NCBI GenBank assembly: GCA_037142615.1
Contig: JBAXAI010000012.1
Location: 26,415 to 90,414, forward strand
Reading direction: 5' to 3'
Length of the DNA: 64,000 bases
DNA from: Spirochaetales bacterium
Lineage (GTDB): Bacteria > Spirochaetota > Spirochaetia > JABEVK01
Shown here in pieces: positions 42,009 to 63,735 of this stretch (its first letter is position 1; each line of letters starts with the position of its first letter). A model generated the notes under the pieces. That model was given only the letters and a program-made list of their open reading frames with translations, was not told the origin of the DNA and made no database searches. The position numbers and the translations under genes were made by a program.

Positions 42009-43727
42009 ATGAGAGTTATGCCGCTCGCCAACGCGCGCTCCTCGTTCGTTTTCGTTCCTGTTCTTGCCGTCTTGGCTCTGGCGTCGCTTGTCCTGTTCAA
42101 TTCGCTCGAAACCGAGTCGCAAGCCGAGAACGCCCGTCAGTTGCACTTCATGAAGACCGCAGCGTTCCAGGTTGTCGACGACCTGGGCTACGAGTTATTC
42201 AGCATGGTGTCGGCGTTCAGCTTCGACCTGAATACCCAGATCGCTGACGGGACCGTGATCACCCGCGACACACTGACCGCCGCGGTGGCTCGTTACCGGG
42301 CCCAAGCCCGTTTTCCGTCACTGTTTGAAGAGCTTGCCTGTCTGGAGCGGACCGGACCCGGCACCTACCGTTTCGACAGCTGGAACGACTCGGGCTGGGT
42401 CACCGACTATCGGCCCAGCTGGGCCGAAAACATGGTGGTGCCGCCCCAAGACGGGGGTCGACCAGAAAGCACACCTCCCAGCGACAACACCTTTTCGCTC
42501 GACCGGCCCGTGTTGACCGTGTACCTTCGCAACCGCAGGGCGCAGGTGGGTGAAGTGATTGCCATCACGCTGCGCTTCCGGCCGCAAACGGTGATCGGCA
42601 CCATCGTCCCCGCGCTTGTGAGTCAGAGGTTTTCCGAAAGCAACGGCGCCAGCCCCTACATCGCCAACATCATCTACAGTCCGGCGACAACCTCGGGCGA
42701 CAGCATCCCGGTCGACTGGAGGGTGCCGCTGTTGCCGTGGACCCCCTTTGAAGGCTGGTTCGACTACTACGTGAAGCGGATCTCGGCGCTCCAACCGTCT
42801 CGGACTGCCTTTGATCGGCTTGCCCAACAGCCTGTGGGCGCCAAGACAGAGGGTACAGGTTGGAACCTCGAGGTGAGTCGCCTTCCCGGGGGACTGCTGG
42901 AAGAATTGATCGGTTTCCGGTGGCGGAACGGCGCCCTTTCCCTGGGCTTCTTTCTCGTGCTGGGCCTTGGCTTTCTGGGCTTGTACCTCACAACGAGGCA
43001 GACCAGGTTGCACGAACATCAGGTGCGGACGTTTCTGGCCCTGGTATCGCATGAGCTGAAGACACCGCTGGCGGTGGTTCAGTCGCTGGCCGACAACCTT
43101 TCGCGCGGCATAGGCACCGATGAAGCGCGTGCCAGGGAGTACGGGGTGGTACTGCGCCAAGAAAGCGACCGACTGGGACGCATGGTGAACAACATCCTCG
43201 GTCTGACGGCCATCCAAGGCGGGATTTCGCCCCGCGACAGGTGCCCGATCGAGGTGTCGGCTCTAGTGAAAGATCGTTTGGCCTGTGAGCCTGACCTGCA
43301 AGACCAAGCCGCAGACCTCACAGTCAACACCGAGTTTCCGACCGACCTGCCGCTCGTGCTGGGCCACCACACGGCCTTGTCGGCGGCGATCGACAACCTG
43401 GTCGGCAACGCCTTCCGCCACGGCACACTGGGTCCGGGCCCCCACCTGGTGGAACTCCGGTTGCGGAGCCAACACCGTCTCGGTCGGCGAGGGGTTTCAT
43501 TCTCGGTGCGCGACAACGGGCCCGGCTTCACGCGGCGGGAAGGGCGCCGGTTCCGTCGTCCGTTCCGGCGGGGTCAGCGTGCCAGCCAGGAACAGACCCC
43601 TGGCAGCGGCGTTGGTCTCAGCCTTGTGTACTCCACGGCCGAAAGCCTGGGCGGTCACCTGAGCTGGAAGTCGCAGGCCGGTCGTGGCAGCCAGTTCGTC
43701 CTGTGGCTGCCGGCGGTGGTCAAGTGA
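42009..43727 (+). CDS. sensor histidine kinase (2 TM, periplasmic domain, HisKA, HATPase_c)
   Basis: H-box LVSHELKTPLAVV. N/G boxes (NLVGNAFRHG, GSGVGLSLV). Start at ATG 42009 (TTG at 41982 and ATG 42018 are alternatives). Confidence 0.8.
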   Translation: MRVMPLANARSSFVFVPVLAVLALASLVLFNSLETESQAENARQLHFMKTAAFQVVDDLGYELFSMVSAFSFDLNTQIADGTVITRDTLTAAVARYRAQARFPSLFEELACLERTGPGTYRFDSWNDSGWVTDYRPSWAENMVVPPQDGGRPESTPPSDNTFSLDRPVLTVYLRNRRAQVGEVIAITLRFRPQTVIGTIVPALVSQRFSESNGASPYIANIIYSPATTSGDSIPVDWRVPLLPWTPFEGWFDYYVKRISALQPSRTAFDRLAQQPVGAKTEGTGWNLEVSRLPGGLLEELIGFRWRNGALSLGFFLVLGLGFLGLYLTTRQTRLHEHQVRTFLALVSHELKTPLAVVQSLADNLSRGIGTDEARAREYGVVLRQESDRLGRMVNNILGLTAIQGGISPRDRCPIEVSALVKDRLACEPDLQDQAADLTVNTEFPTDLPLVLGHHTALSAAIDNLVGNAFRHGTLGPGPHLVELRLRSQHRLGRRGVSFSVRDNGPGFTRREGRRFRRPFRRGQRASQEQTPGSGVGLSLVYSTAESLGGHLSWKSQAGRGSQFVLWLPAVVK

Positions 43728-44422
43728 CCCCGGCACCCAAACGCATTTTGATGATCGAAGACGAGCGGGGCCTGGTGCTGTCGGTGAGCGACCGGCTTCG
43801 CAGCGAAGGCTACCAAGTGTTTGCCGAAACCCGCGGAGACAGCGGCTTGCAGCGGGCGTTGGCCGAGGAGTGGGACCTCTTTTTGATCGATGTGATGCTC
43901 CCCGGCGTCGATGGCTTCGAGATCGTCAAACGCCTTCGCCAGGCCAAAATCACCACGCCGGCCCTGTTGGTGACCGCGCGAGAACAGGTGGTCGACCGCG
44001 TTTCGGGCCTGCGCCTCGGGGCCGATGACTACCTGGTCAAACCCTTTGCCATGGACGAGTTGGTCGCCCGCATCGAAAACCAGATTCGCCGGTTGGTAAC
44101 CATGCCGGGCCCGAGCACGCCGAGCCAACGGGTCTTTGGACCCTACGTGTTCGACCCGGTAAAAGCCGGCGTGTTTGTCGAAGGCGAGCGCGTCACCATG
44201 ACCCACCAGGAGTTCCTGCTGCTCAAGGTGCTCATCGAACACGAGGGGCAAGTGGTGGAGCCCGCCAAGCTGCTCGACCTGGCCTGGGGTTACGGCAGCG
44301 AGGTTACCTCGCGAACCCTGTACGTCCATATGTCTTGGTTGCGTCAGAAATTAAAAATCCCCGACCGCAAGGATGGACCCATCCAGACGGTGCGGGGCTT
44401 CGGCTACCTGTTCGTCGGCTAG
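43724..44422 (+). CDS. OmpR/PhoB-family response regulator (second, co-transcribed with kinase)
   Basis: GTG overlapping kinase stop (GTGA). Receiver plus winged helix. Paralogous to the divergent regulator. Confidence 0.8.
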   Translation: MTPAPKRILMIEDERGLVLSVSDRLRSEGYQVFAETRGDSGLQRALAEEWDLFLIDVMLPGVDGFEIVKRLRQAKITTPALLVTAREQVVDRVSGLRLGADDYLVKPFAMDELVARIENQIRRLVTMPGPSTPSQRVFGPYVFDPVKAGVFVEGERVTMTHQEFLLLKVLIEHEGQVVEPAKLLDLAWGYGSEVTSRTLYVHMSWLRQKLKIPDRKDGPIQTVRGFGYLFVG

Positions 44423-44434
44423 AGTGTGCCGGGT

Positions 44435-44851
44435 CTAGCTGCGGTCTTCGGGACCGTCGATGCCCATCGTCCAAATGTTGCGCCCGATTCGCATGCTCGC
44501 AAACTCGGTTTCACCGCGCACCAGCGACGCCTTGAGCAACGGATTGATCAGGGCCGTCAGCGAAGCGCGGTTGTTGGTGTCGTTCACCAGCGTGTCGATG
44601 GCGTCCTTGTAGGTTACGGCGACCGAGGCCAGCGGGGCGTCGATCTTGTCGCCGTCAACTCCATGGGCAGTGAACCATGCGCGGATCGCGTCGGCGGGCG
44701 AAACCTCGATGGTGCCGAGGGTTGTCTGGTCGTTTGTGTGGCCGTACGTGGTCACCAAACGGTAGTTTTCCGCATTGCCCTGAGCGAACGCCATTCCAGC
44801 AGCGCTGGTGACCAGCAGGGTTGCAAGTGCCAATTTCTTGAAGGTTTTCAT
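44435..44851 (-). CDS. small secreted hypothetical protein
   Basis: 138 aa. Signal peptide MKTFKKLALATLLVTSAAGMAFA. Strong GGAGGAAGG RBS. Confidence 0.5.
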   Translation of the reverse strand: MKTFKKLALATLLVTSAAGMAFAQGNAENYRLVTTYGHTNDQTTLGTIEVSPADAIRAWFTAHGVDGDKIDAPLASVAVTYKDAIDTLVNDTNNRASLTALINPLLKASLVRGETEFASMRIGRNIWTMGIDGPEDRS

Positions 44852-44897
44852 GTTTCCTTCCTCCTGAGTCCAAGCTAGTTCTTCCGCGCTGGAGCAA

Positions 44898-49683: not shown

Positions 49684-49819
49684 ACGCCAATAGTAATTGC
49701 ACCGGGGCCCGGCGTAAACAGCAAAGAAGTCGACTATTCCGTCCTAATCCCCGTCAACAACCGCCAACGCCGGTCAGGGGCAGACACGAGCGCCCGGGCC
49801 GGTGTATGTTGGCGCACCT

Positions 49820-51658
<1,839 letters not shown>

Positions 51659-51695
51659 TGGAGGGGGGCGTCCCCCCCCTGCGCTCCATAAAAAA

Positions 51696-51720
51696 GGCGG
51701 CCCTCGGGCCGCCTTTTGTT
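51696..51720 (+). terminator. rho-independent terminator of typA (GGCGGCCC-TCG-GGGCCGCC + TTTTGTT), preceded by a G7/C8 hairpin
   Basis: Seen directly. Flanks GCGCTCCATAAAAA and TTTGTTATTGCGCTACCCC are repeated at 63604-63660. Confidence 0.65.
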
Positions 51721-51763
51721 ATTGCGCTACCCCCGTGCGGGGACACCCCTCAAGGCCCGATGG

Positions 51764-51813: not shown

Positions 51814-54800
51814 ATGCGAACCGTAAGAGACCTCTGTACAATTCAGCCCGGTGCCCTCGATGTCAGCGTTTCCGATCAGATCGAACGCCTCGACCAATTG
51901 ATCAACGAAAAAGGCGATGGCAGGGAGTTTTTTGACAAGACATTTGTCACGGAAGGCATGAAAGCGATGCTTACCGAGGGGTTTGCGCGCCTCTCGGGGA
52001 AGTCCTCACAGGCACTGTTCCACCTGAAACAGGCGATGGGTGGGGGAAAAACCCACCTTCTAGTCAGTTTTGGACTCTTGGCCAAGAGCGTCGATCTTCG
52101 CCGCTTGGTCACCCCCAACATCGCCTATCACGAGTCTTTCGTTCCGGCCAAGGTCGCCGCCTTCACCGGACGAAACTATCCCAACGAATACTTCTGGGGC
52201 TCTTTGGCGAGCCAACTTGGTAACCCCGCGCTCTTTTCCCGCTATTGGACCAATGGACCGGACGCCCCAGGTGAGGATGCGTGGCTCCAACTGTTTGACG
52301 GTGACCAACCCATACTCATCCTGCTTGACGAATTGCCACCCTACTTTAACTTCTACCGAACCAAAGAAGTCGGCCAGGGGACTGTTGCAGATATAGCGAC
52401 CAGTGCGCTCTCCAACATGTTTTCGGCGGCTAGCAAGAAGGCGAATGTCTGTGTCGTGATCGCCGATCTTAATGCCGCTTACGAGAAAGGCGCCGCGGGG
52501 ATCAACCACGCGCTCGAGGACGCGAAACAGGAGCTTGGTCGGGGGGCAAAAACCATTACACCGGTTGACTTGGCCGGTAATGAAATCTACGCCATCCTAC
52601 GCAAACGTTTGTTCGCCTCGCTGCCAAGCCAGAGTGCCATCGACGAAGTAGCTGCCGGCTATGGAAGGGCGATCGCCGAGGCCAGCCGGGCCAAGATGAT
52701 CGGTCGGTCAGCCGAGGCGATCGCCGACGAAATCAGCCAAACCTACCCGTTCCATCCCAAACTCAAGAACCTCATTGCGTTGTTCAAGGAGAATGAACAG
52801 TTCCGGCAAACACGTGGCCTCATGGAATTGGTTTCCCGACTTCTGAAGAGCGTGTGGACCCGCGAACTGAACGACGTCTACTTGATTGGCCCGCAGCACT
52901 TTGATCTGTCGATCTCCGAGGTTCGCGACAAGCTTGCTGATATTTCCGACATGGCCGACGTGATTGCCAAAGACTTGTGGGACGCCAACGGTGCCGCACA
53001 TGCTCAGGTGATTGACGCTGATACCCAAAATGACGCTGCTCGCATTGCAGCGAATCTCGTGTTCACCTCGAGCCTTTCGACCGCGCACAACGCGGTTCGC
53101 GGCCTGACTTCCGAGGAAATTCTGGAATGTGCCATTAGTCCGTTTCAAGATGCTGCCAGCATCACTACGGCATTGGAGCAACTCAACTTGCAGGCATGGT
53201 ACTTGCACCACTCGGGCGAAGGGAAGTACTTCTTCGACAGGGTCGAGAACCTGACCAAGCTATTGCAGGACCTCGCGGAGAAGGCACCAAGACCTCAGGT
53301 CGACCAGGTGATTCAGAAGAGACTATCCGATCTCTTTCAGCCGACCCGCAAAGTTGCGTACGAAGAAATGATCGCGCTCCCGACTCTCTCGGAGGTGGAA
53401 GACACTATCCGAAAAAAGCGAGTCCTACTCATTCTACCCCCTGAGGGTAAGATCCCTTCCGACGGACTTGAGAAGTTCTTCCAGTCGATTCAGTCCAAAA
53501 ACAACTTGTTGGTGCTGACCGGGGAAAAGAGCGTGATGGACAACCTTGAGGCCAAAGCAAGGTACGTGTTCGCATCCATCAAAGCTGAATCCAGAATCCC
53601 CAAGGGACACGCTCAGCGTGAAGAACTCGAGCGGAAGCAAGAACAGTACTCTGCTGACCTTCTGACCGCGACCCTCAACACGTTCGATAAGGTAGTGTTC
53701 CCCACCCAACGTTCGGGTCAACAGGCTCGCCTTGTCTCCAAGCCGCTTTCTCAAAGCTATAACCAGAGCAAACCTTACAATGGTGAACAGCAGATAGAGG
53801 CCACGTTGGCGGCGGACCCTCTGAAGTTGTATGTCGATGTTGCCCAAGATTTTGAGGCGATTCGCGACAAAGCGCAGGATTTACTGTGGCCGCAAGGGAG
53901 CGACGATACGAGGTGGACGGACGCTCGAGAGCGGGCAACTCAGGAACCGGCCATGCCCTGGCTACCGTCCGTAGGTTCCGCAGGTCTCGAACTCGTGAAA
54001 CAACTGGCTCTCAGCCATGGCAAGTGGGAAGATCTGGGGAACGGATACGTCACCAAGAAACCCCGCCCCAAGAAGGCGTCGTTGCAGATTTCGCAGGAGT
54101 CGGAGCCCGACGACGAAGGCCGAGTCCGCTTGAGGCTGGTACCTCAGAACGCAGGCAATCAACCCAAAATCTACGTTCAGGAAGAAGGGTCGGTCTCACC
54201 TTCCAGCCCAGTTCATCTAGATACACTGTTTTCAACCAAAGCCTTGTGGGCCGAGTTTCTTGTTGTAGACCCTTCGGGCCAAGCCCTGCCCGGTGAGCCA
54301 ATACGGTGGGACAACGAGCTGGTGATTCGTCATCGGGTAAGCGGTCAAGGAGCCCACCGAAGCGTGGAGTTGTACCTGTCGCCGCGCGGAAAACTTTGGT
54401 ACAGCCTCGATGGTACAGAACCTCGAAACGGTGCCTCCTATGATGGCTCCTTCGAAGTCGCAGAAACGGGAGGCCGGCTGCTTGTCTATGGCAAAGCCGA
54501 CGCCCTTGAAAAAAAGGCTGACTTCACGATTCCGGCAGTTCAGCAAAACGAAGTCACCTTCGACGAGAGTCGGCCCGCAAGTCTAGTTCGGCCTTCACCG
54601 TTTCGCCTTGACTCGCGACAGAAGACATTCGAGCTCTTGGAGCTAGCTGCAACCCAACAAGTGGTGTTTTCCAAACTCTCGCTGGCCGTCGGCCAAATGG
54701 CTTCTGCGATTTCGGTGACAATCCCACAGAAAGAAGTTAGCGCCGAGTATCTTCTGAAGATTGTGAAGGCCATTAGCGACGACCTGCCAGCCAGCGAACC

Positions 54801-54906
54801 TATCACTTTAGGGTTTTGCCGCGCCCAGTTTCGCCTTGGCAAAGAGCTCAAGGAGTTCACCGACCGAGCTGGCTTCAATCCGCAGGCAGGAGACATTGTT
54901 CAGTGA
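51814..54906 (+). CDS. large P-loop NTPase (about 1030 aa; Walker A-like MGGGKTHLL near N-terminus), possibly DUF499-type defence ATPase
   Basis: Walker A GGGKTH at aa about 75. Hydrophobic-DELP Walker B-like (ILILLDELPPYF). No other recognisable domain. First gene of coupled operon. Confidence 0.55.
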   Translation: MRTVRDLCTIQPGALDVSVSDQIERLDQLINEKGDGREFFDKTFVTEGMKAMLTEGFARLSGKSSQALFHLKQAMGGGKTHLLVSFGLLAKSVDLRRLVTPNIAYHESFVPAKVAAFTGRNYPNEYFWGSLASQLGNPALFSRYWTNGPDAPGEDAWLQLFDGDQPILILLDELPPYFNFYRTKEVGQGTVADIATSALSNMFSAASKKANVCVVIADLNAAYEKGAAGINHALEDAKQELGRGAKTITPVDLAGNEIYAILRKRLFASLPSQSAIDEVAAGYGRAIAEASRAKMIGRSAEAIADEISQTYPFHPKLKNLIALFKENEQFRQTRGLMELVSRLLKSVWTRELNDVYLIGPQHFDLSISEVRDKLADISDMADVIAKDLWDANGAAHAQVIDADTQNDAARIAANLVFTSSLSTAHNAVRGLTSEEILECAISPFQDAASITTALEQLNLQAWYLHHSGEGKYFFDRVENLTKLLQDLAEKAPRPQVDQVIQKRLSDLFQPTRKVAYEEMIALPTLSEVEDTIRKKRVLLILPPEGKIPSDGLEKFFQSIQSKNNLLVLTGEKSVMDNLEAKARYVFASIKAESRIPKGHAQREELERKQEQYSADLLTATLNTFDKVVFPTQRSGQQARLVSKPLSQSYNQSKPYNGEQQIEATLAADPLKLYVDVAQDFEAIRDKAQDLLWPQGSDDTRWTDARERATQEPAMPWLPSVGSAGLELVKQLALSHGKWEDLGNGYVTKKPRPKKASLQISQESEPDDEGRVRLRLVPQNAGNQPKIYVQEEGSVSPSSPVHLDTLFSTKALWAEFLVVDPSGQALPGEPIRWDNELVIRHRVSGQGAHRSVELYLSPRGKLWYSLDGTEPRNGASYDGSFEVAETGGRLLVYGKADALEKKADFTIPAVQQNEVTFDESRPASLVRPSPFRLDSRQKTFELLELAATQQVVFSKLSLAVGQMASAISVTIPQKEVSAEYLLKIVKAISDDLPASEPITLGFCRAQFRLGKELKEFTDRAGFNPQAGDIVQ

Positions 54907-55490
54907 ACAATCTGCCCCAGTTTGAAGACTTTGGTGCACCCACTAGGGTGGGCTCTCACATCTTCTTGGTCGATATTCCCATCAGTCGTTCAGAGCCGGT
55001 TCTCATTCTGGAAAACTATGGCTTCCTTGGCGGTGAACGGGGTATTCCCGAGAAGGAAACCCGCGTCAGTCTGAATCGCAGCCATTGGTACGGTATTTCG
55101 GAGATCGCCCGACAAGACTTCAACGATCGGCTCAAGGGCAAGAAGATGACGACGAGCCGATGGACGACCGGCCTGAACAAACTCGACAAGCTATTGGGCA
55201 AAGAACTCTGCGTGCTAGCCTGGGCAGCAGAGCAGTCGTCGTTGGAACAGCTGCCCATCGTTTGCCACAGGTGGGTGTCGCTCCGACCAGAGGAACGCTG
55301 GTGGTTGTTTCGCATGACTGTCGCCGAGGCAGGGCTGGCGCAAGACCTCGACCGAGGCTGGCGAAAGGCCCTCCACTTTGCTCTTTCTGATGGTAAGATT
55401 GACGAGCGGCGCATCAAGCGCCCCCGACCCGATGACGACGACGAGGATTTGTCGTTGTTCGGTGGTTCCGTGCAGGAGGTTCACCAGTGA
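54903..55490 (+). CDS. small protein (195 aa) with acidic C-terminal tail (RPRPDDDDEDLSLFGG), function unknown
   Basis: GTG overlapping upstream stop (GTGA). Always-coupled position between the large NTPase and the AAA ATPase. Confidence 0.45.
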   Translation: MNNLPQFEDFGAPTRVGSHIFLVDIPISRSEPVLILENYGFLGGERGIPEKETRVSLNRSHWYGISEIARQDFNDRLKGKKMTTSRWTTGLNKLDKLLGKELCVLAWAAEQSSLEQLPIVCHRWVSLRPEERWWLFRMTVAEAGLAQDLDRGWRKALHFALSDGKIDERRIKRPRPDDDDEDLSLFGGSVQEVHQ

Positions 55491-56533
55491 TTAGCCACCT
55501 CAGCGTTGAAAACTTTGCGGCACTGGAGCAGGCCGAGCTCGACTTTTCCCCGGGGCTGAATGTCATCCTGGGCGAGAACAGCACCGGCAAAAGTTTGCTG
55601 ATGAAATTGATGTATTCCGGCGCTTGGGTCAGCCACTCCTTGGGGAAAGGCGACCGCAAAACCAAAGATGAGCTGCAGCGAGCCATAGCTGACAAGCTGA
55701 AGGCAGTGTGCATTCCTGAATCTCTTGGGAGACTCGTTACCCGGAAGGCGGGCCGAAATCGGTGCACGGTTCGGGTATCGTTCAGCGAACCCCAGAATGC
55801 CTCATTCGGGTTCTCATTCGCCACAAATAGCGATCGTGAAGCCAAACTCGACGGCGCCACCCCCGAAGGCTACCTGAGCTCATCGCCTATTTTCATTCCA
55901 ACAAAAGAAGTTCTTTCGGTGTTCCCCAATTTTGCAGCGACACTTCGCTCCAAGCACCTCTTCTTTGACGATACATACCTTGATTTGCTCGACGCACTCG
56001 ACCAGCCAGTCAACAAAGGGGCCCCCAAGAAGGACGAAAGAGAACTCCGGGATTCACTGGAGCAGGCAATGGCGGGTCGCGTTGTGTTCGACGGAGGCCG
56101 CTTCTACTACCTGCCCGAAGCAGAGGGCAAAGGGAAGATTGAAATGCCGTTGGTTGCCGAAGGCCTACGGAAGATTTCGATCTTGACCTACCTAGTGATG
56201 AACGGTGGCCTGCGCAATAAGTCTCTCTTATTCTGGGACGAACCTGAGGTTAACTTGAACCCCAAACTGATGCGCAGACTTGCCGTCGTGTTGGTCGACA
56301 TGGCCGAGCGCGGGGTTCAAGTGATCCTTGCCACTCATAGTCTGTTCTTGCTCCGCGAGTTGGTCATTGCTCGCGCCAGTAGCAAGACGAAAGAACCCGT
56401 GCGTTTCTTTGCCCTTTCGAAGCAAGGAGACACGCAGAGGGTGACGCAAGGTGACTCGGTCGAAGAGGTCGACCCGTTGGCCAGTCTCGATGCGGAACTG
56501 GAACAGAGCGATCGGTACCTGGAGCTTCCTTGA
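55487..56533 (+). CDS. AAA/ABC-type ATPase (RecF/SMC-like, AAA_21-like: Walker A GENSTGKS ... Walker B LLFWDEPEVNL ... ATHS)
   Basis: GTG start overlapping upstream stop. P-loop at N-terminus, Q/signature region, D-loop and H-loop spacing typical of the OLD/AbiEii/Septu-PtuA-type ABC ATPases. Confidence 0.7.
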   Translation: MISHLSVENFAALEQAELDFSPGLNVILGENSTGKSLLMKLMYSGAWVSHSLGKGDRKTKDELQRAIADKLKAVCIPESLGRLVTRKAGRNRCTVRVSFSEPQNASFGFSFATNSDREAKLDGATPEGYLSSSPIFIPTKEVLSVFPNFAATLRSKHLFFDDTYLDLLDALDQPVNKGAPKKDERELRDSLEQAMAGRVVFDGGRFYYLPEAEGKGKIEMPLVAEGLRKISILTYLVMNGGLRNKSLLFWDEPEVNLNPKLMRRLAVVLVDMAERGVQVILATHSLFLLRELVIARASSKTKEPVRFFALSKQGDTQRVTQGDSVEEVDPLASLDAELEQSDRYLELP

Positions 56534-57072
56534 TGCAAGTCTTCGACGAGCAGGGAATTGCGTTTGCCTTTCCTGACGACTTTGTCGTTTTTCGCCCTCA
56601 ACACTCCGTTTTTTACAGAAAGTTGTGGCAGCGGTTTTCGATCCCCGACGCGGCGGGCGAGAAAGGAAACAAAGAAGCTGACTTCGTTGCCGTCGACCGA
56701 AAGGAGCAACGCCTTTGGCTCATCGAGGCCAAGGACTATCGTGTCCACGAACGCACCAAGCCCGGGTCACTGTCGCAGGAGTTTGCCCGCAAATGCCGCG
56801 ATTCGCTGGCATTGTTGGCCGCGTTGCAGCTCAGTAGCACCGCAGCCGAGGTTGGCGAAACAGCGAGCGGGCTGTTGGATGGTCTCAAGAAGGTTTCTTG
56901 CGTCTTGCACGTCGAGCAGAAGGCAGGTGAAAAACTTTTCCCGCTGGCGGTCAGACCCACTGACCTGAAAGACGCACTGCGTCGCGAACTACATGCCCTT
57001 GACCCCCAGGCGCTCACGGGTACGGCTGCGGAGCTCGCAACACTTCAACTTCCCTTCACCATCACCGTCTAG
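56533..57072 (+). CDS. small PD-(D/E)XK-like putative nuclease (motif D-x19-EAK: ADFVAVD...LWLIEAKD)
   Basis: 179 aa. ATG overlaps ATPase stop (TGATG). D/ExK arrangement consistent with restriction-endonuclease fold (inference). Confidence 0.4.
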   Translation: MQVFDEQGIAFAFPDDFVVFRPQHSVFYRKLWQRFSIPDAAGEKGNKEADFVAVDRKEQRLWLIEAKDYRVHERTKPGSLSQEFARKCRDSLALLAALQLSSTAAEVGETASGLLDGLKKVSCVLHVEQKAGEKLFPLAVRPTDLKDALRRELHALDPQALTGTAAELATLQLPFTITV

Positions 57073-57080
57073 GAGCCCCC

Positions 57081-59042
57081 ATGCCAGTAGTTCCCTTTTC
57101 CCTCAAAGAAGCACCGGCGTTGATCGAAACGCTGTTCCCGGCCCAGAAGTTGTCGATCGAAGCGTACAAGGAACAGATGGCGGGCAGCGGCAAGACCTTG
57201 ACCGCTTTGGGAAGCTACTGGAAGGGCCGCAAGCCGCTCATCTTGAACCGTGCCTGTGTCTTGGGCTGCCTGCTGCCGGTGACTGCCAACCCCATCCGGG
57301 ACCTCGAGATTTTCGAGAAGCTAATGGCCATGGACGAAACCGCGCTAACTCACCGTCTCAAGGCCAAGAACGACAAGAAGAGTCGCTCTCTTATTTCCAG
57401 CTATCAACATAAGGTCGATGCCGCCTGTCGCCCCGAGGAGTGCGACAACACTTTGTACGACGGGATTTGGCCCGAGGTAAACGCTCACTTGGGCACCGAA
57501 GCGACGAGCTTTCCCGAGTTGGTGGAACAGCTGGGAATCATGCGCTTTGGCCACCGTCCCCGGTTTGCCGACGTGTTTTCGGGCAGCGGGCAGATTCCCT
57601 TCGAGGCCGCCCGGCTGGGCTGCGACGTGTACGCCAGCGACCTGAACCCCGTGGCCTGCATGCTTACTTGGGGCTCGTTTCATTTGGTGGGTGCCCAGCC
57701 CGAGGAGCGGCAAGAGATTGCAGTGGCGCAGGCACGGTTGGTGCAGAAGGTGCAGTCCGAAGTCGATGCCTTGGGCATCGAGAACGACGGCAAGGGATGG
57801 CGGGCTAAGGCCTTTCTGTATTGCGTCGAGGTAAGGTGCCCCCAGACAGGCTGGATGGTGCCGCTGATTCCCAGTTTGATTGTCAGCCAGCCACGTACGG
57901 GCGAGGTGCGCAACAACGTGGTGGTTCAGCTGGTTCCCCTGCCCGCCGAAAAGCGCTACCGCATTGATGTGGTTTCGTTCGCCACTGAAGCCCAACTGGC
58001 TCAAGCCGAACTCGGCACCGTACAGGGCGGCGAGATGGTGCATTCGCCCGACGGTACCAAGGTGTACCGCACCAAGATCAGCACCTTGCGGGGGGATTAC
58101 GCCGAGGGCGGCGAAACCAAGAACAGGCTGCGAATGTGGGAAAAGCATGACTTTGTAGCTCGGCCCCACGACCTATACCAAGAGCGACTGTACTGTGTGC
58201 AGTGGCTTCGCACCAAAGCCGCTGGCCGGGGGCAGGAGTACGAGTTCCGGTCGGTGACTCCCGACGACCTGACGCGCGAGAAAACAGTGATCGACTTTGT
58301 GGGATCACGGCTGGCCGAATGGCAGGCCAAGGGTTGGGTCCCCGACATGGTGATCGAGGCCGGGGCCAAGACCGACGAGCCGATTCGCACCCGGGGCTGG
58401 ACTCACTGGCACCACCTGTTCAACCCGAGGCAGTTGCTGGTGGCGGGGTTGGTGCGGCAAAACATCAACTCCACCACGGCGTTCGGACTGTCGCAGGTGA
58501 TCAACTGGAACAGCCGGTTGTGTCGATGGAATATGGGCAGCGGTGGCGGTGGCAGTATCCAGGACGTATTCTACAATCAGGCTCTCAATACTCTTTTCAA
58601 CTACGGTTGTCGTAACACAGCTCTGGCCCTTACCCAGGTCGACCTCGGTGCCAGGAGCTTTCCTTTCGCCAAAGGAGTGAAGGCTGAAGTGAAGACTCAC
58701 GCGGCCAACGCCATCACCGCGCCCACCGATCTGTTCATCACCGACCCGCCGTACGGCGACGCCGTCAAGTACGAAGAAATCCTCGAGTTCTTCATCGCCT
58801 GGCTGCGCAAGAACCCGCCTGCCGAGTTCAAAGGTTGGGTGTGGGACAGCCGCCGGGTGATGGCCATCAAGGGTGAAGACGACAAGTTCCGGCAGGCCAT
58901 GATCGACGCGTATTCGGCCATTACGCGTTGTATGCCCGACAACGGTATGCAGGTCATCATGTTCACCCACCAGTCGGGCAGCATTTGGGCCGACATGGCG
59001 CACATCGTGTGGGCGGCGGGGCTGCAGGTCACGGCGGCGTAG
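57081..59042 (+). CDS. N6-adenine DNA methyltransferase (motif I FxGxG: DVFSGSGQIPFE; motif IV DPPY: FITDPPYGD), terminated by in-frame TAG
   Basis: AGGAG RBS. SAM-binding motif near aa 165 and DPPY near aa 545 with a large intervening region. Ends at TAG 59040-42. Confidence 0.75.
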   Translation: MPVVPFSLKEAPALIETLFPAQKLSIEAYKEQMAGSGKTLTALGSYWKGRKPLILNRACVLGCLLPVTANPIRDLEIFEKLMAMDETALTHRLKAKNDKKSRSLISSYQHKVDAACRPEECDNTLYDGIWPEVNAHLGTEATSFPELVEQLGIMRFGHRPRFADVFSGSGQIPFEAARLGCDVYASDLNPVACMLTWGSFHLVGAQPEERQEIAVAQARLVQKVQSEVDALGIENDGKGWRAKAFLYCVEVRCPQTGWMVPLIPSLIVSQPRTGEVRNNVVVQLVPLPAEKRYRIDVVSFATEAQLAQAELGTVQGGEMVHSPDGTKVYRTKISTLRGDYAEGGETKNRLRMWEKHDFVARPHDLYQERLYCVQWLRTKAAGRGQEYEFRSVTPDDLTREKTVIDFVGSRLAEWQAKGWVPDMVIEAGAKTDEPIRTRGWTHWHHLFNPRQLLVAGLVRQNINSTTAFGLSQVINWNSRLCRWNMGSGGGGSIQDVFYNQALNTLFNYGCRNTALALTQVDLGARSFPFAKGVKAEVKTHAANAITAPTDLFITDPPYGDAVKYEEILEFFIAWLRKNPPAEFKGWVWDSRRVMAIKGEDDKFRQAMIDAYSAITRCMPDNGMQVIMFTHQSGSIWADMAHIVWAAGLQVTAA

Positions 59043-59045
59043 TAC

Positions 59046-59915
59046 GTGGTCACCGAAACCGACAGCGCCTTGCGCGGCAGCAACAACGTCAAAGGAACAG
59101 TGCTTCTGGTACTCCGCAAACGACAGGGTGAACACAAAAGCAGCCGCAGCGACTTGGGGTGGGAACTGCAAGAAGAAGTCGACCGGCAAGTGCAGACTCT
59201 GACCGGTCTGAACCAGAGCGCGAAGACTCTGTACCGAGACGAAAACTTGTTCAGCGACGCCGACCTACAGATGGCGGGCTACGCGGCGGCGCTGCGAGTG
59301 CTTACCCGGTACACATTCATCGACGGCAAAGACATGCGTATCGAGGCCGGGCGCCCCAAACAGAAGGGCAAGAAGGACTTTGTCGAGCAGCTGATCGACT
59401 TTGCCGTCGAGACCGCCAACGGGGCTTTGGTCCCCTTGGGGCTGGAACGTTCCGTGTGGGAAAAGCTTACCCCCGGCGAGCGGTTCTACCTCAAGATGAT
59501 CGACCTCGAGTCGCAAGGGGCCAAGTCGCTCGACAACTACCAAAACTTCGCCAAAGCGTTCAAGGTGCCTGACTACCGGCTGTACCTGGCCGAAGACCGG
59601 GCCAACCATGCCCGCCTTAAGTCAGGCGCCGATTTTGGACGCAGCGAAATGTCCGACTCTTCCGAACTGGCGGGCACCCGGCTCCGGGGCTTGCTGTATG
59701 GCTTGATGGAACTGGGCCAAGGCGTCGAGTCCGACGATGTGCTGGGTCACCTGAGTCTGAACGTGAAGAACTACTTCAACTGCCGTTTGGAACTTGTCGA
59801 AATCGCCGACTTCTTGGCCGCCAAGCTGGAGCACCTGGACGCCGACCAGGCCAGCCACGCACGCGTGCTGCGCGACCTGGTACGCCACCAGAAACTCGGC
59901 GCCTGGGAAAACTGA
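59046..59915 (+). CDS. C-terminal continuation of the methyltransferase reading frame (289 aa, same frame, separated only by TAG + one codon)
   Basis: 57081 and 59046 are both congruent mod 3. E plus F would give about 944 aa. Either a split gene or nonsense-interrupted pseudogene. Confidence 0.5.
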   Translation: MVTETDSALRGSNNVKGTVLLVLRKRQGEHKSSRSDLGWELQEEVDRQVQTLTGLNQSAKTLYRDENLFSDADLQMAGYAAALRVLTRYTFIDGKDMRIEAGRPKQKGKKDFVEQLIDFAVETANGALVPLGLERSVWEKLTPGERFYLKMIDLESQGAKSLDNYQNFAKAFKVPDYRLYLAEDRANHARLKSGADFGRSEMSDSSELAGTRLRGLLYGLMELGQGVESDDVLGHLSLNVKNYFNCRLELVEIADFLAAKLEHLDADQASHARVLRDLVRHQKLGAWEN

Positions 59916-62665
59916 TGCCGATTCGACGTTTTTCCTCGCTGCACGAGCGCCTCGACAAGAGCTTTCTGGCCGAACACCTCAAGGGTGCCCGCTCATATCG
60001 CCGCATCGCCGGGTACTTCCGGTCGTCCATCTTCGAGCTGGTGGGCGAAGAAATCGCCGGTATTCCCGACGTACGAATTCTGTGCAACAGCGAACTCGAT
60101 GTGCACGACATCAATGTAGCCCAGGAAGCCAGCCGCAACGTTGCCTTGAAGGAAAAGTGGAATCAGGTTCCTGTGGAAGTGGAAGGGCTACTCCACAAGC
60201 ACCGTTATAGGGCCCTCTACGACTTGCTCATGGCCGGAAACCTGAAGATCCAGGTGGTTCCCAAAGACAGCGTGTTCGTGCACGGCAAGGCGGGCGTCAT
60301 CGAAGGCGCCGATGGCAAGCGGATCGCCTTCTTGGGCTCGATCAACGAAAGCAAGTCGGCGTTCCTGACCAATTACGAAATTCTTTGGGAAGACGACAGC
60401 CCGGAAGGTGTCGCGTGGGTCGACCGTGAGTTTGACGAGCTTTGGAAGCGCAGCTACCCCTTGCCGCAAGCCATTATCGAAGAAATCGGCAGAGTGGCCA
60501 ACCGAACCGAGGTCAGGTTCGAGGATTTAGAAGACGCCGACATTCCCGCCTCGGCGTTGGTAGAGGCGCCCATCTACCGTGGCGGCGAGCAATTGCAGCC
60601 CTGGCAGCGGTCCTTCGTGACGCTATTTCAGAAGCATCGCGATATGTACGGCAAAGTACGCCTATTGCTGGCCGACGAAGTCGGGTTGGGAAAGACCCTC
60701 TCACTGGCCACCGCAGCGATGGTGGCCAACCTCATGGGCGATGGCCCCGTTCTCATCCTGTGCCCGGCGACCTTGGTGTGGCAATGGCAGGTCGAACTCA
60801 AAGATCGGCTGGGGATTCCCAGCTGCGTGTGGGAATCCAGCAAGAAGGTTTGGGTCGACCCCGAGGGCCGGGTGATCCCTACCAAGGGTGCCGAAGACAT
60901 CGCCAAGTGTCCCTTCCAAGTCGCCATTGTCTCTACGGGGCTCATTTTCCAATCGTCCCGCGCGCGCGAACCCGAGGTGTTGTTGCAGCGCCGGGGTGGC
61001 TACGGAACTGTAGTGCTGGACGAGGCACACAAAGCCCGCAAGCGCGGTGGCCTGGGCCAACGTGACGCCGAACCCAACAACCTGCTTGAGTTCATGCTCC
61101 GCATTGGCGAGAAAACTCGACACCTGCTTTTGGGAACGGCGACGCCCATCCAAACCAACGTGGAAGAGCTTTGGGACCTCATGGAGATCCTTTCGGTCAA
61201 GGCGGAGTTCGTGCTGGGTCGGGAAACGCCTTCTTACTGGCGCCGCATGGACTTCGCGCTCCCACTGATCAAAGGGGAATCGGTACCTGAAAGTGCGCTC
61301 GAAGCTTGGGATCTGCTTCGAAACCCACTGCCACCGATTCAGGAGACCTGCGAACCGGCTGCGATGATTCGGACCCTGCTCGAGTTGGAAGACAGTCGAT
61401 TCTTCGTTCCTACAGGATACCATCAGCTCGATCCGACCGTTCAGATGCAGGTAGACCAAGCTATGGAACCAGGTTTTTTTCGCGAACATAACCCTTTGCT
61501 CAGGCACGTCGTCTTGCGGAAACGGGCCCGATTGGAAGACTTGGGTCTGTTGGAACGCATCCGTGTCGACGTTCATCCGGACCCTGAATTGGGCCCTGGA
61601 GCCTACCCCGGAATCCCCTTTGCCGTAGAGGGACAGGGACTCCTGACCAATCAACCGTTCAACCTAGCTTACCGAGCTGCCGAGGAATTTACGCGCCTCC
61701 TTGCATCCAAAGTAAAGAGTGCGGGGTTCATGAAGTCCCTGATGCTGCAACGAATCTGCTCGAGCTTTGCGTCGGGACTTTCGACAGCCCGAAAGATCAT
61801 GGCAAAAGCAATCTTGGGCGACTCGGAAGATGAATCCCAATCGATGTCTGCCGTCTACGACGCCATTGGCGAAGAAGAACTCGCCCAACTGCAGATCATT
61901 GTTGACGAGCTTTCGCGGCCGGAAGCCCGTGACCCCAAACTGGGGGCGGTGAAGCATTTTCTGCTGGAACATCGGTCCGCGTTTGATGACACTTTGGCTC
62001 AACCTCACAACTGGCTCGAATACGGGTGCATCATCTTTTCGCAGTACTACGACACTGCGCTCTGGGTGGCGAAAGAGCTCGCCAGGGTGCTCCCCGACGA
62101 ACCGGTCGGTGTCTACGCTGGTTCAGAGAAGAGTGGGATCTACCGCAACGACGACTTCAGTAGCGTTGAGCGTCATCAGCTCAAACTTGCGGTCAAAGAT
62201 CGAAGTATCCGGCTCATGGTGGCTACCGACGCGGCGTGTGAGGGACTCAACCTTCAAACCCTTGGAACACTAATAAACGTTGACCTCCCGTGGAACCCGA
62301 GCCGTCTGGAACAACGTCTGGGCCGCATCAAGCGCTTTGGTCAGGCTCGCAGAAGCGTCGACATGCTCAATTTGGTCTACCACGACACCCAGGACCAGAA
62401 GGTCTATTCAGTGATTTCCCAGCGACTTAAGGACAAGTTCGACATTTTCGGCAGCCTTCCCGATACGATCGACGACGAGTGGATTGCCGACGAGCAAACA
62501 TTGGAAGAGCGACTAAATCAGTACCTCCATCTCCGTGATCAAGCCAAGAATGCGTTTGAACTCCGCTATGAAGATGACGTCGACCCCGAGAAGAATCGAT
62601 GGGAGCTTTGTAGCCGAGTTCTCAGTCGAAAGGACATCGAAGAGAGAATGGCAAAGAGTTGGTAA
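59915..62665 (+). CDS. PLD-family (HKD) nuclease domain fused to SNF2/DEAD-like superfamily 2 helicase
   Basis: N-terminal HxK...D / GSxN (VHGKAGVIEGADGKRIAFLGSINESKSAF). Helicase motif I LLADEVGLGKT, II VVLDEAHKARK, III LLLGTATPIQ, C-terminal helicase domain (MVATDAACEGLNLQ, QRLGRIKRFGQ). ATG overlaps upstream stop (TGATG). Confidence 0.8.
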   Translation: MPIRRFSSLHERLDKSFLAEHLKGARSYRRIAGYFRSSIFELVGEEIAGIPDVRILCNSELDVHDINVAQEASRNVALKEKWNQVPVEVEGLLHKHRYRALYDLLMAGNLKIQVVPKDSVFVHGKAGVIEGADGKRIAFLGSINESKSAFLTNYEILWEDDSPEGVAWVDREFDELWKRSYPLPQAIIEEIGRVANRTEVRFEDLEDADIPASALVEAPIYRGGEQLQPWQRSFVTLFQKHRDMYGKVRLLLADEVGLGKTLSLATAAMVANLMGDGPVLILCPATLVWQWQVELKDRLGIPSCVWESSKKVWVDPEGRVIPTKGAEDIAKCPFQVAIVSTGLIFQSSRAREPEVLLQRRGGYGTVVLDEAHKARKRGGLGQRDAEPNNLLEFMLRIGEKTRHLLLGTATPIQTNVEELWDLMEILSVKAEFVLGRETPSYWRRMDFALPLIKGESVPESALEAWDLLRNPLPPIQETCEPAAMIRTLLELEDSRFFVPTGYHQLDPTVQMQVDQAMEPGFFREHNPLLRHVVLRKRARLEDLGLLERIRVDVHPDPELGPGAYPGIPFAVEGQGLLTNQPFNLAYRAAEEFTRLLASKVKSAGFMKSLMLQRICSSFASGLSTARKIMAKAILGDSEDESQSMSAVYDAIGEEELAQLQIIVDELSRPEARDPKLGAVKHFLLEHRSAFDDTLAQPHNWLEYGCIIFSQYYDTALWVAKELARVLPDEPVGVYAGSEKSGIYRNDDFSSVERHQLKLAVKDRSIRLMVATDAACEGLNLQTLGTLINVDLPWNPSRLEQRLGRIKRFGQARRSVDMLNLVYHDTQDQKVYSVISQRLKDKFDIFGSLPDTIDDEWIADEQTLEERLNQYLHLRDQAKNAFELRYEDDVDPEKNRWELCSRVLSRKDIEERMAKSW

Positions 62666-62900: not shown

Positions 62901-63537
62901 GCACGAGCCCATCGAGCACCGCCACATCGACTGCGAAGAAAGCTACACCGGCATCGTCACCGAAAAGCTGAGCATGCGCAAATGCCGCATGACCAACATG
63001 GTCAACCACGGCAGCGGTCGCGTGCGCCTGGAGTTTTCGGCCCCCAGCCGCTCGCTCATCGGTTACCGCGACGAGTTCCTCACCGATACCAAAGGCACCG
63101 GCCTGATGAACAGCTACCTCGCCGGCTACGAACCCTACCGCGGCGAAATCCCGAGCCGTAACAACGGCTCTTTGGTGTGCGACCGCCAGGGCGAAGCCGT
63201 GGCCTACGGCATTTTCCACCTCGAACCCCGCGGCCGCATTTTCGTGGTGCCCGGCGACAAGGTGTACGAAGGCATGATCGTCGGCGAACACAACCGCGAC
63301 CTCGACCTCGACATCAACGTGTGCAAGGAAAAGAAACTCAGCAACATGCGCTCCGCCGGCAAAGACGACAACATTTTGCTCACGCCCGTGAAGCCCATGA
63401 CGCTAGAGGCCAGCCTGAACTTTTTGCGCGACGACGAGTGGCTGGAAGTGACCCCGAAGAATTTGCGGTTGCGGAAGCAATACCTGGGGATTGCGGATCG
63501 GAAGCAACACAGTAAGAAACTCAACGACGGGGTGTAG
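62901..63537 (+). pseudogene. typA: diverged duplicate of the 3' terminal ~640 bp of typA (encodes C-terminal about 211 aa of TypA, no 5' part)
   Basis: Aligns with 51022-51658 at roughly 90% nucleotide identity with mostly synonymous differences. Encoded peptide nearly identical (…DKVYEG… vs …DKCYEG…). Confidence 0.8.
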
Positions 63538-63617
63538 CTAGGACCGGAGAGTTTTTGGCGAAGCCAGAAACTCTGGGGCTAAGGTACCGTAGGTGCCGTG
63601 CCCGCGCTCCATAAAAA

Positions 63618-63643
63618 CAGCCCCGTCAACGGGGCTGTTTGTT
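63618..63643 (+). terminator. rho-independent terminator after the typA fragment (CAGCCCCG-TCAA-CGGGGCTG + TTTGTT)
   Basis: Same conserved flanks as the typA terminator at 51696-51720 but a completely different stem sequence. Confidence 0.6.
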
Positions 63644-63735
63644 ATTGCGCTACCCCGGCGCAGACTTCGCTAGCGCCTGCCGGGCGTCGCCCGGAGCCCG
63701 GATCGCGTGCTATAACACTCCTGTGAGACCGATTC

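Follow-up and report, generated by a model that had tools for sequence, protein, structure and literature searches.

The interrupted methyltransferase gene

The DUF1156-type N6-adenine DNA methyltransferase considered here is encoded on a 64,000-nucleotide stretch of DNA from a Spirochaetales bacterium (NCBI GenBank assembly GCA_037142615.1, contig JBAXAI010000012.1, positions 26,415 to 90,414), which is referred to as the window and to which all coordinates apply. Profiles and the alignment of homologues place the gene, with its 944 codons, at 57081-59915 on the forward strand, within an operon that on its gene content belongs to a bacteriophage exclusion (BREX)-related (BR) anti-phage system. 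The gene is interrupted by one amber codon, TAG at 59040-59042 on the forward strand, in place of an invariant tryptophan codon within the block VTAA-W-YVVTETDSALR. The alignment of homologues and three sequence records that carry the TAG suggest that it is most probably an ordinary nonsense mutation.

As the initial annotation had pointed out, the amber codon separates two ORFs that lie in a common frame, the start of each being divisible by 3: an upstream ORF of 653 aa with an ATG start (57081-59042) and a downstream ORF of 289 aa with a GTG start (59046-59915), both on the forward strand. The TAG is followed by a single TAC codon (59043-59045) and the GTG at 59046, in the context GCG GCG TAG TAC GTG GTC ACC. 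The whole region translates as 945 codons of which codon 654 is the sole internal stop, in agreement with the joined product of about 944 aa that had been anticipated. There is no repeat tract at the TAG, so nothing points to reversible phase variation. The ORF table, the profiles and the structural model described below define the upstream ORF (MEI8094500.1 at NCBI) as an N-terminal fragment with the DUF1156 helical domain, motif I, the insert that carries the target recognition domain (TRD), motif IV and strand beta-5, ending within beta-6. The downstream ORF, deposited as the hypothetical protein MEI8094501.1 (WCG80_09830), is defined by the profiles and the model as the C-terminal fragment, with the remainder of beta-6, beta-7 and a C-terminal helical region that is helix-turn-helix (HTH)-like.

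Homologues of the methyltransferase

The two pieces fall one after the other on single-protein profiles, which argues that the adjacency of the ORFs is not due to chance. On the PADLOC DUF1156_MTase profile (944 positions) the first piece covers positions 2-651 with 1059 bits and the second 654-944 with 362.8 bits. The NCBIfam model NF042963 (960 positions), an equivalog named 'anti-phage-associated DUF1156 domain-containing protein', is covered at 131-678 and 682-959 with 929.5 and 305.1 bits, each piece remaining below the cutoff of 1000 bits. These matches bear out the earlier view of the gene as the modification gene of a system resembling restriction-modification (R-M). Judged on its sequence, the methyltransferase is a member of the Type-2 BR family by descent but is not intact, as it is collinear with the family and keeps the FSGSGQ and DPPY motifs whereas its ORF is broken and its pieces score below the cutoff.

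The joined sequence was searched against 5.8 billion proteins and the two pieces were aligned to the homologues separately. Among the 120 matches listed, 119 are single proteins of 932-1021 aa that share 56-72% identity with the joined sequence, which suggests that a single ORF of about 930-1020 aa is the normal state of the gene; the remaining match (P0002) is the window's own 653-aa product, deposited as 'MAG: DUF1156 domain-containing protein [Spirochaetales bacterium]'. In the alignment of these matches the column of the stop holds tryptophan in 119/119 full-length homologues and is surrounded by the conserved block VTAAWYVVTETDSALR, whose columns are near-invariant. Since tryptophan is invariant at this column and has a single codon, codon 654 would have changed from TGG to TAG by one G to A transition.

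A genome survey gave the same picture. The motif V-T-A-A-W-Y-V-V-T-E is present in 78 of 80 species-representative genome loci that carry a methyltransferase homologue, and 75 of these 78 have it within an ORF that runs unbroken for at least 900 aa; two of the exceptions (L003 and L081) are cut by contig ends and the third (L057) has another internal stop, upstream of the motif. No homologue is split at the point of the TAG (0/119 proteins, 0/80 genome loci), and P0004, from a closer relative (loci L084-L086) with the same six-gene layout as the window, is a single methyltransferase of 952 aa. The alignment with full-length homologues proposed in the initial annotation thus runs unbroken across the stop on PADLOC, on NF042963 and in the 119 homologues, and the counter-hypothesis that homologues are naturally two proteins with a boundary here finds no case. 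With tryptophan in 119/119 homologues, the motif in 78/80 loci and the break inside a core strand, a natural two-part enzyme is refuted at the level of sequence comparison and the two ORFs are read as one gene. The 653-aa and 289-aa proteins that have been deposited would accordingly be the halves of one broken gene, and their annotation as two proteins is misleading.

The stop in L057, a locus in a Desulfobaccales metagenome-assembled genome (MAG; JBGSLA010000239.1, 11447), is a TAA near aa 423 that falls in a variable loop. L057 holds the sole internal-stop methyltransferase among the 80 loci, so that about 1 in 80 can be taken as the family's base rate for interrupted methyltransferases.

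Position of the break in the protein

The stop comes after both motif I (FSGSGQ, aa 166-171) and motif IV (DPPY, aa 555-558). The closest full-length homologue, P0001, was modelled with AlphaFold2 from a 120-sequence alignment (mean pLDDT 78.4, pTM 0.67). After its DPPY motif at 543-546 the model comprises helices, a strand at 611-617, a helix at 622-633, strands at 636-645 and 660-668 and further helices to the C-terminus, as in the class-I S-adenosylmethionine (SAM)-dependent methyltransferase fold with its seven-stranded core and terminal beta6-beta7 hairpin after motif IV. The column of the stop corresponds to W642 of P0001 and in this model lies within strand 636-645 (beta-6) and at no domain boundary. 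On the model, the 653-aa product would be cut off within beta-6 and would have neither beta-7 nor the DNA-binding helical region that makes up the C-terminal 250 aa or so. Because these elements are lost we infer that the truncated product should be methylation-null, even with motif I (SAM binding), the TRD insert and DPPY retained.

An earlier AlphaFold2 model built from 36 sequences reached a pLDDT of 63.6, too poor to be used, and its Foldseek matches were meaningless. A sequence search of the PDB with the family profile returned nothing at E <= 1.

Origin of the amber codon

The TAG is common to three records, namely the Spirochaetales MAG, the Logan assembly of SRR8517161 and contig SESB01054549.1 (GCA_005795825.1). 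The Logan contig of 2728 bp is an exact substring of the window (57409-60136), as is the 1053 bp of SESB01054549.1 (58966-60018), and on both of these short contigs a gene stops 3 nt ahead of the 289-aa gene. An exact look-up among encoding contigs found none for the 653-aa product and two further records for the 289-aa product, and no paper was found with the run, assembly or locus-tag accessions.

The initial annotation had allowed for a nonsense mutation, a sequencing error or a genuine split. The first of these stands: an ordinary TGG to TAG nonsense mutation in a BREX-related methyltransferase, real in the sequenced population and probably recent, is given a probability of roughly 0.8. 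A sequencing or consensus error, with TGG as the true codon and an intact methyltransferase, is unlikely. It would be in keeping with a metagenome-assembled source, with the modest coverage hinted at by the short Logan (2728 bp) and SESB (1053 bp) contigs and with the lack of any further lesion in the methyltransferase gene; however, wherever the three records overlap the window they match it with 100% identity, also at the TAG, and the agreement of three separately produced assemblies argues against an assembler-specific artefact. Moreover the window showed no further broken gene, 89.5% of its sequence lies in ORFs of 150 aa or more and the typA, DUF499, DUF3780 and helicase genes give end-to-end profile matches, and it is improbable that a substitution fixed in the consensus would also create a stop at an invariant residue.

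A genuine split fares worse, as the tryptophan of 119/119 homologues speaks against it. In its functional form, translation would terminate at the TAG and re-initiate at GTG 59046 to give fragments that assemble into an active enzyme, an outcome to which very little credence is given. The TAG and GTG are 3 nt apart, with -5.0 kcal/mol the Shine-Dalgarno-like pairing upstream of the GTG hardly differs from that of presumed real starts (median -5.2), and the downstream ORF keeps all highly conserved residues. Against this stand the lack of any homologue split here, as noted above, and the location of the break in a beta strand of the most conserved block, where an invariant tryptophan and a near-invariant tyrosine are removed; nor is the GTG distinctive, as 25% of internal in-frame start-like codons pair equally well or better. 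Recoding or read-through of the TAG into a full-length enzyme is the least credible of these accounts. Low-level natural amber read-through occurs in bacteria, but there is no direct support for it here. TAG is an ordinary and indeed the commonest stop in the window, where it ends 20 of 42 long ORFs with high GC content at third codon positions (GC3) as compared to 14 for TGA and 8 for TAA, and this makes recoding unlikely; it closes complete genes too, such as that of the response regulator at 43703-44422. Furthermore there is no tRNA gene in the window, and the ancestral residue is tryptophan, which is not one tied to programmed amber decoding.

Some considerations nevertheless weigh against a real nonsense mutation with the effects proposed below. 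The three records with the TAG may share a read set, in which case a systematic base-calling error is conceivable. No near-identical intact (TGG) allele was found in the protein database, the JGI metagenomes or plasmids: the best full-length relative among the matches listed is 72% identical, a pattern scan of the JGI metagenomes for the site with TNG returned the same contig alone, and megablast against plasmids gave no match. An intact downstream ORF with a start-like GTG one codon past the stop is also what a functional split would be expected to leave, and the loss of methylation and that of defence are both inferred.

A second same-frame junction of the 'TAG plus one codon' kind, at 44422/44426 (window 43703-44878), was considered as a further broken gene and dismissed as chance. 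Upstream of 44422 lies a complete OmpR-type response regulator (43703-44422), and the 150-aa ORF downstream of 44426 has a low GC3 (0.56) and no family match.

The operon and its system

The operon lies downstream of typA (49802-51658, profile match) and all its genes are on the forward strand. It starts with a full-length DUF499 AAA+ ATPase gene (51814-54906), whose product matches PDLC02192 with 1370 bits over profile positions 1-1021 of 1022 and NF042962 with 1329.2 bits (cutoff 1200) over positions 1-1025 of 1025, as expected of a family member. A standalone DUF3780 protein follows (54903-55490; NF042961, 217.6 bits with a cutoff of 200; PF12635, 221 bits), the GTG start of which overlaps the DUF499 stop codon (GTGA). 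Next come two embedded genes encoding an ABC/AAA_21-type ATPase (55487-56533; PDLC04146, 355.6 bits) and a small partner protein (56530-57072; PDLC04145, 99 bits), a pair that inside a DUF499/DUF1156 operon corresponds to PADLOC's Hma-embedded candidate 02 (HEC-02). Beyond the methyltransferase lies the predicted effector, a full-length PLD(HKD)-SNF2 helicase-nuclease (59915-62665; PDLC02193, 1371.9 bits; NF042964, 1186.6 bits with a cutoff of 1100) with PLDc_2 at aa 21-177, SNF2-rel_dom at 247-428 and Helicase_C at 705-809. At its N-terminus an HKD/PLD nuclease replaces a TUDOR domain, and the protein keeps the family's PLD-domain signature HGKAG...GSxNE as well as GLGKT and DEAH. Four of the five operon junctions have overlapping stop and start codons, among them TGATG, where the helicase ATG overlaps the methyltransferase TGA.

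The order ATPase-DUF3780-methyltransferase-helicase is the same in the species-representative loci that hold these genes; homologues of the methyltransferase are found in 80/80 of them, of DUF3780 in 74, of the helicase in 73 and of DUF499 in 71. By gene content and order the locus is a Type-2 BR system, a DUF499-centred BREX-related anti-phage system that has already been described. Type-2 BR systems are reported from 1120 taxa and are predicted to work in an R-M-like manner, with the methyltransferase marking self DNA, the ATPase scanning and the HKD-helicase restricting (PMC12839542). No experimental test of any member of a Type-2 system was found in the literature, where this role is a predicted one.

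The HEC-02 pair sits between DUF3780 and the methyltransferase with overlapping stop and start codons. The same six-gene arrangement occurs in L084-L086 with 46-77% protein identity and HEC-02 at the same position (8405-9990 in L084), while the genomic context of these three loci differs from that of the window in having GmrSD, RecT and Gam neighbours. Among the 80 species-representative loci no HEC-02 homologue is found at that position, the sole match being a distant ATPase (34%) elsewhere in L012. Many of these loci (L006, L008, L010, L024, L035, L041, L044, L072 and others) hold 1-3 kb of extra DNA, judged from start coordinates, next to the methyltransferase gene, on the side of either DUF3780 or the helicase. 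The two junctions look like places where accessory genes have been inserted repeatedly.

Comparison with known systems

The locus agrees with Type-2 BR (PMC12839542, NAR 2026; NF042961-NF042964; PADLOC PDLC02189-02193) in having all four components in the conserved order and departs from it in the amber codon at the invariant tryptophan of the methyltransferase and in the HEC-02 pair, which is shared with L084-L086 and not with the 80 representatives. Hma, which is Type-1 BR, is composed of the helicase HmaA, the DUF1156 methylase HmaB and the DUF499 ATPase HmaC. The ATPase, methyltransferase and SNF2 helicase of the window are homologous to these and match the HmaA, HmaB and HmaC profiles at E-values of 1e-20 to 1e-52, but with scores far lower than those of the Type-2 profiles. 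Hma lacks DUF3780 and carries its nuclease, of the PD-(D/E)XK type, at the C-terminus, whereas the window has DUF3780 and an N-terminal PLD domain. Hma operons also hold other embedded defence genes (PMC11232893).

Type 3 BREX comprises the PglXI/BrxXI methyltransferase, the helicase BrxHII and BrxC. Its methyltransferase resembles that of the window in the TRD insert after core strand 2 and in the C-terminal HTH triad (PMC12839542), and the PglXI profile matches the window methyltransferase at aa 410-650. In contrast, the window has no PglZ, BrxA, BrxB or BrxF, and its effector is a PLD nuclease-helicase. As in methyltransferase pseudogenes of R-M and BREX systems that arose by a nonsense or frameshift mutation, a single point lesion affects a modification gene that is otherwise intact and has intact neighbours, but the window site has no repeat tract.

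Age of the lesion

The simplest reading of the sequence is that the mutation is probably recent. GC3 is 0.78 on both sides of the stop, and downstream of it the protein keeps 63/63 columns conserved at 99% or more and 96/99 of those conserved at 95% or more. In a regression of C-part on N-part divergence the window is unremarkable at -0.69 sd (rank 15 of 120). Agreement at conserved sites amounts to 0.906 for DUF499, 0.972 for the helicase, 0.966 for DUF3780 and 0.975 and 0.956 for the N and C parts of the methyltransferase, as compared to medians of 0.98-0.99 in the 80 genome loci, so that the four proteins lie in the lower tail but are never extreme. This would be compatible with either a divergent lineage or a slight relaxation of constraint.

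Of the 287 positions that its family conserves at 95% or more, the DUF499 ATPase (51814-54906) deviates at 27, the fifth lowest agreement of 60. Its deviation could reflect either lineage divergence or relaxed constraint after loss of the methyltransferase. A separate observation concerns the composition of the methyltransferase gene, whose GC3 of 0.78 is like that of host genes (0.76-0.85) while the other genes of the island have 0.64-0.68. Pairwise identities in the closest clade (P0001, P0003-P0006) are 80-93% for the C-terminal part, which is much the better conserved, and 67-76% for the N-terminal part. These two contrasts may indicate a mosaic or module-swapped evolution of the methyltransferase.

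Consequences for the defence system

It had been expected in the initial annotation that an inactivated methylase beside an intact nuclease-helicase would be toxic, an expectation that the BREX literature does not support. According to two reports, the methyltransferase of type I BREX has to bind DNA for defence as well as for methylation, and BREX restriction generally needs all components (PMC11842806, PMC13326643). If BREX is a guide, the methyltransferase probably doubles as the subunit that recognises the site and is needed for restriction, and since the TRD is part of it, its loss would probably remove target recognition too. In addition, the stop of the methyltransferase appears to be translationally coupled to the start of the nuclease-helicase; with termination now 873 nt upstream of the coupled start, expression of the helicase-nuclease may drop. 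As BREX needs its methyltransferase and the coupling is possibly lost, the system would be silent rather than autoimmune, and a silenced defence system is the likeliest outcome, a view that is favoured with some reserve.

The main alternative, which is considered rather doubtful, is that methylation is dead but the remaining genes (DUF499, DUF3780, the PLD-helicase and HEC-02) defend the cell in a methylation-independent manner. These other genes are full length with their catalytic motifs kept, the Type-1 helicase-nuclease HmaA alone defended against T4 without being toxic, and about 15% of Hma-like loci are without a methylase (PMC11232893). However, the general need of BREX restriction for all components, as stated in the reports cited above, extends to the methyltransferase; the TRD lies inside the methyltransferase (PMC12839542), on which site recognition therefore probably depends; and the lost coupling may reduce helicase expression. 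The position of DUF499, the helicase and DUF3780 in the lower tail of conserved-site agreement fits relaxed selection as well. It is improbable that the amber allele is itself tolerated or selected, either as a two-piece enzyme in which re-initiation at GTG 59046 preserves the coupling to the nuclease or as a knock-out that followed a recent horizontal arrival next to typA. If the knock-out version were true, the locus would be a natural case of a BREX-related system switched off through its methyltransferase without autoimmunity.

On the preferred reading of a nonsense mutation that silences the system, this copy is to be scored as probably inactive. It adds a small data point, in that a truncated methyltransferase and an intact PLD-helicase can occur side by side in a Type-2 BREX-related system, and this coexistence fits a BREX-like model, where restriction depends on the methyltransferase, and not the classical toxicity of restriction without modification. 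The system is a known and named one, and nothing at the locus opens a new question or challenges current views.

Flanks of the island

The last 635 bp of typA together with the terminator region are doubled as direct repeats (51022-51733 and 62901-63656) that flank the defence island of 11.2 kb. The two copies differ by 35 mismatches and no gaps (94.5% identity). Of the mismatches 28 are at third codon positions, the amino-acid changes number about three, and over the last 199 bp the copies are the same. Between the repeats there is no integrase, and the island has a GC content of 0.55-0.57 as compared to 0.60-0.64 in its flanks. The arrangement looks like the product of a Campbell-type single crossover or like an island that brought a surrogate gene 3' end from another lineage. 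The regions downstream of the two typA copies (51690-51720 and 63610-63640) share the conserved flanks GCGCTCCATAAAAA ... TTTGTTATTGCGCTACCCC but differ in the GC-rich stems of their hairpins, GGCGGCCCTCGGGCCGCC versus CAGCCCCGTCAACGGGGCTG, and look like orthologous terminators from two lineages.

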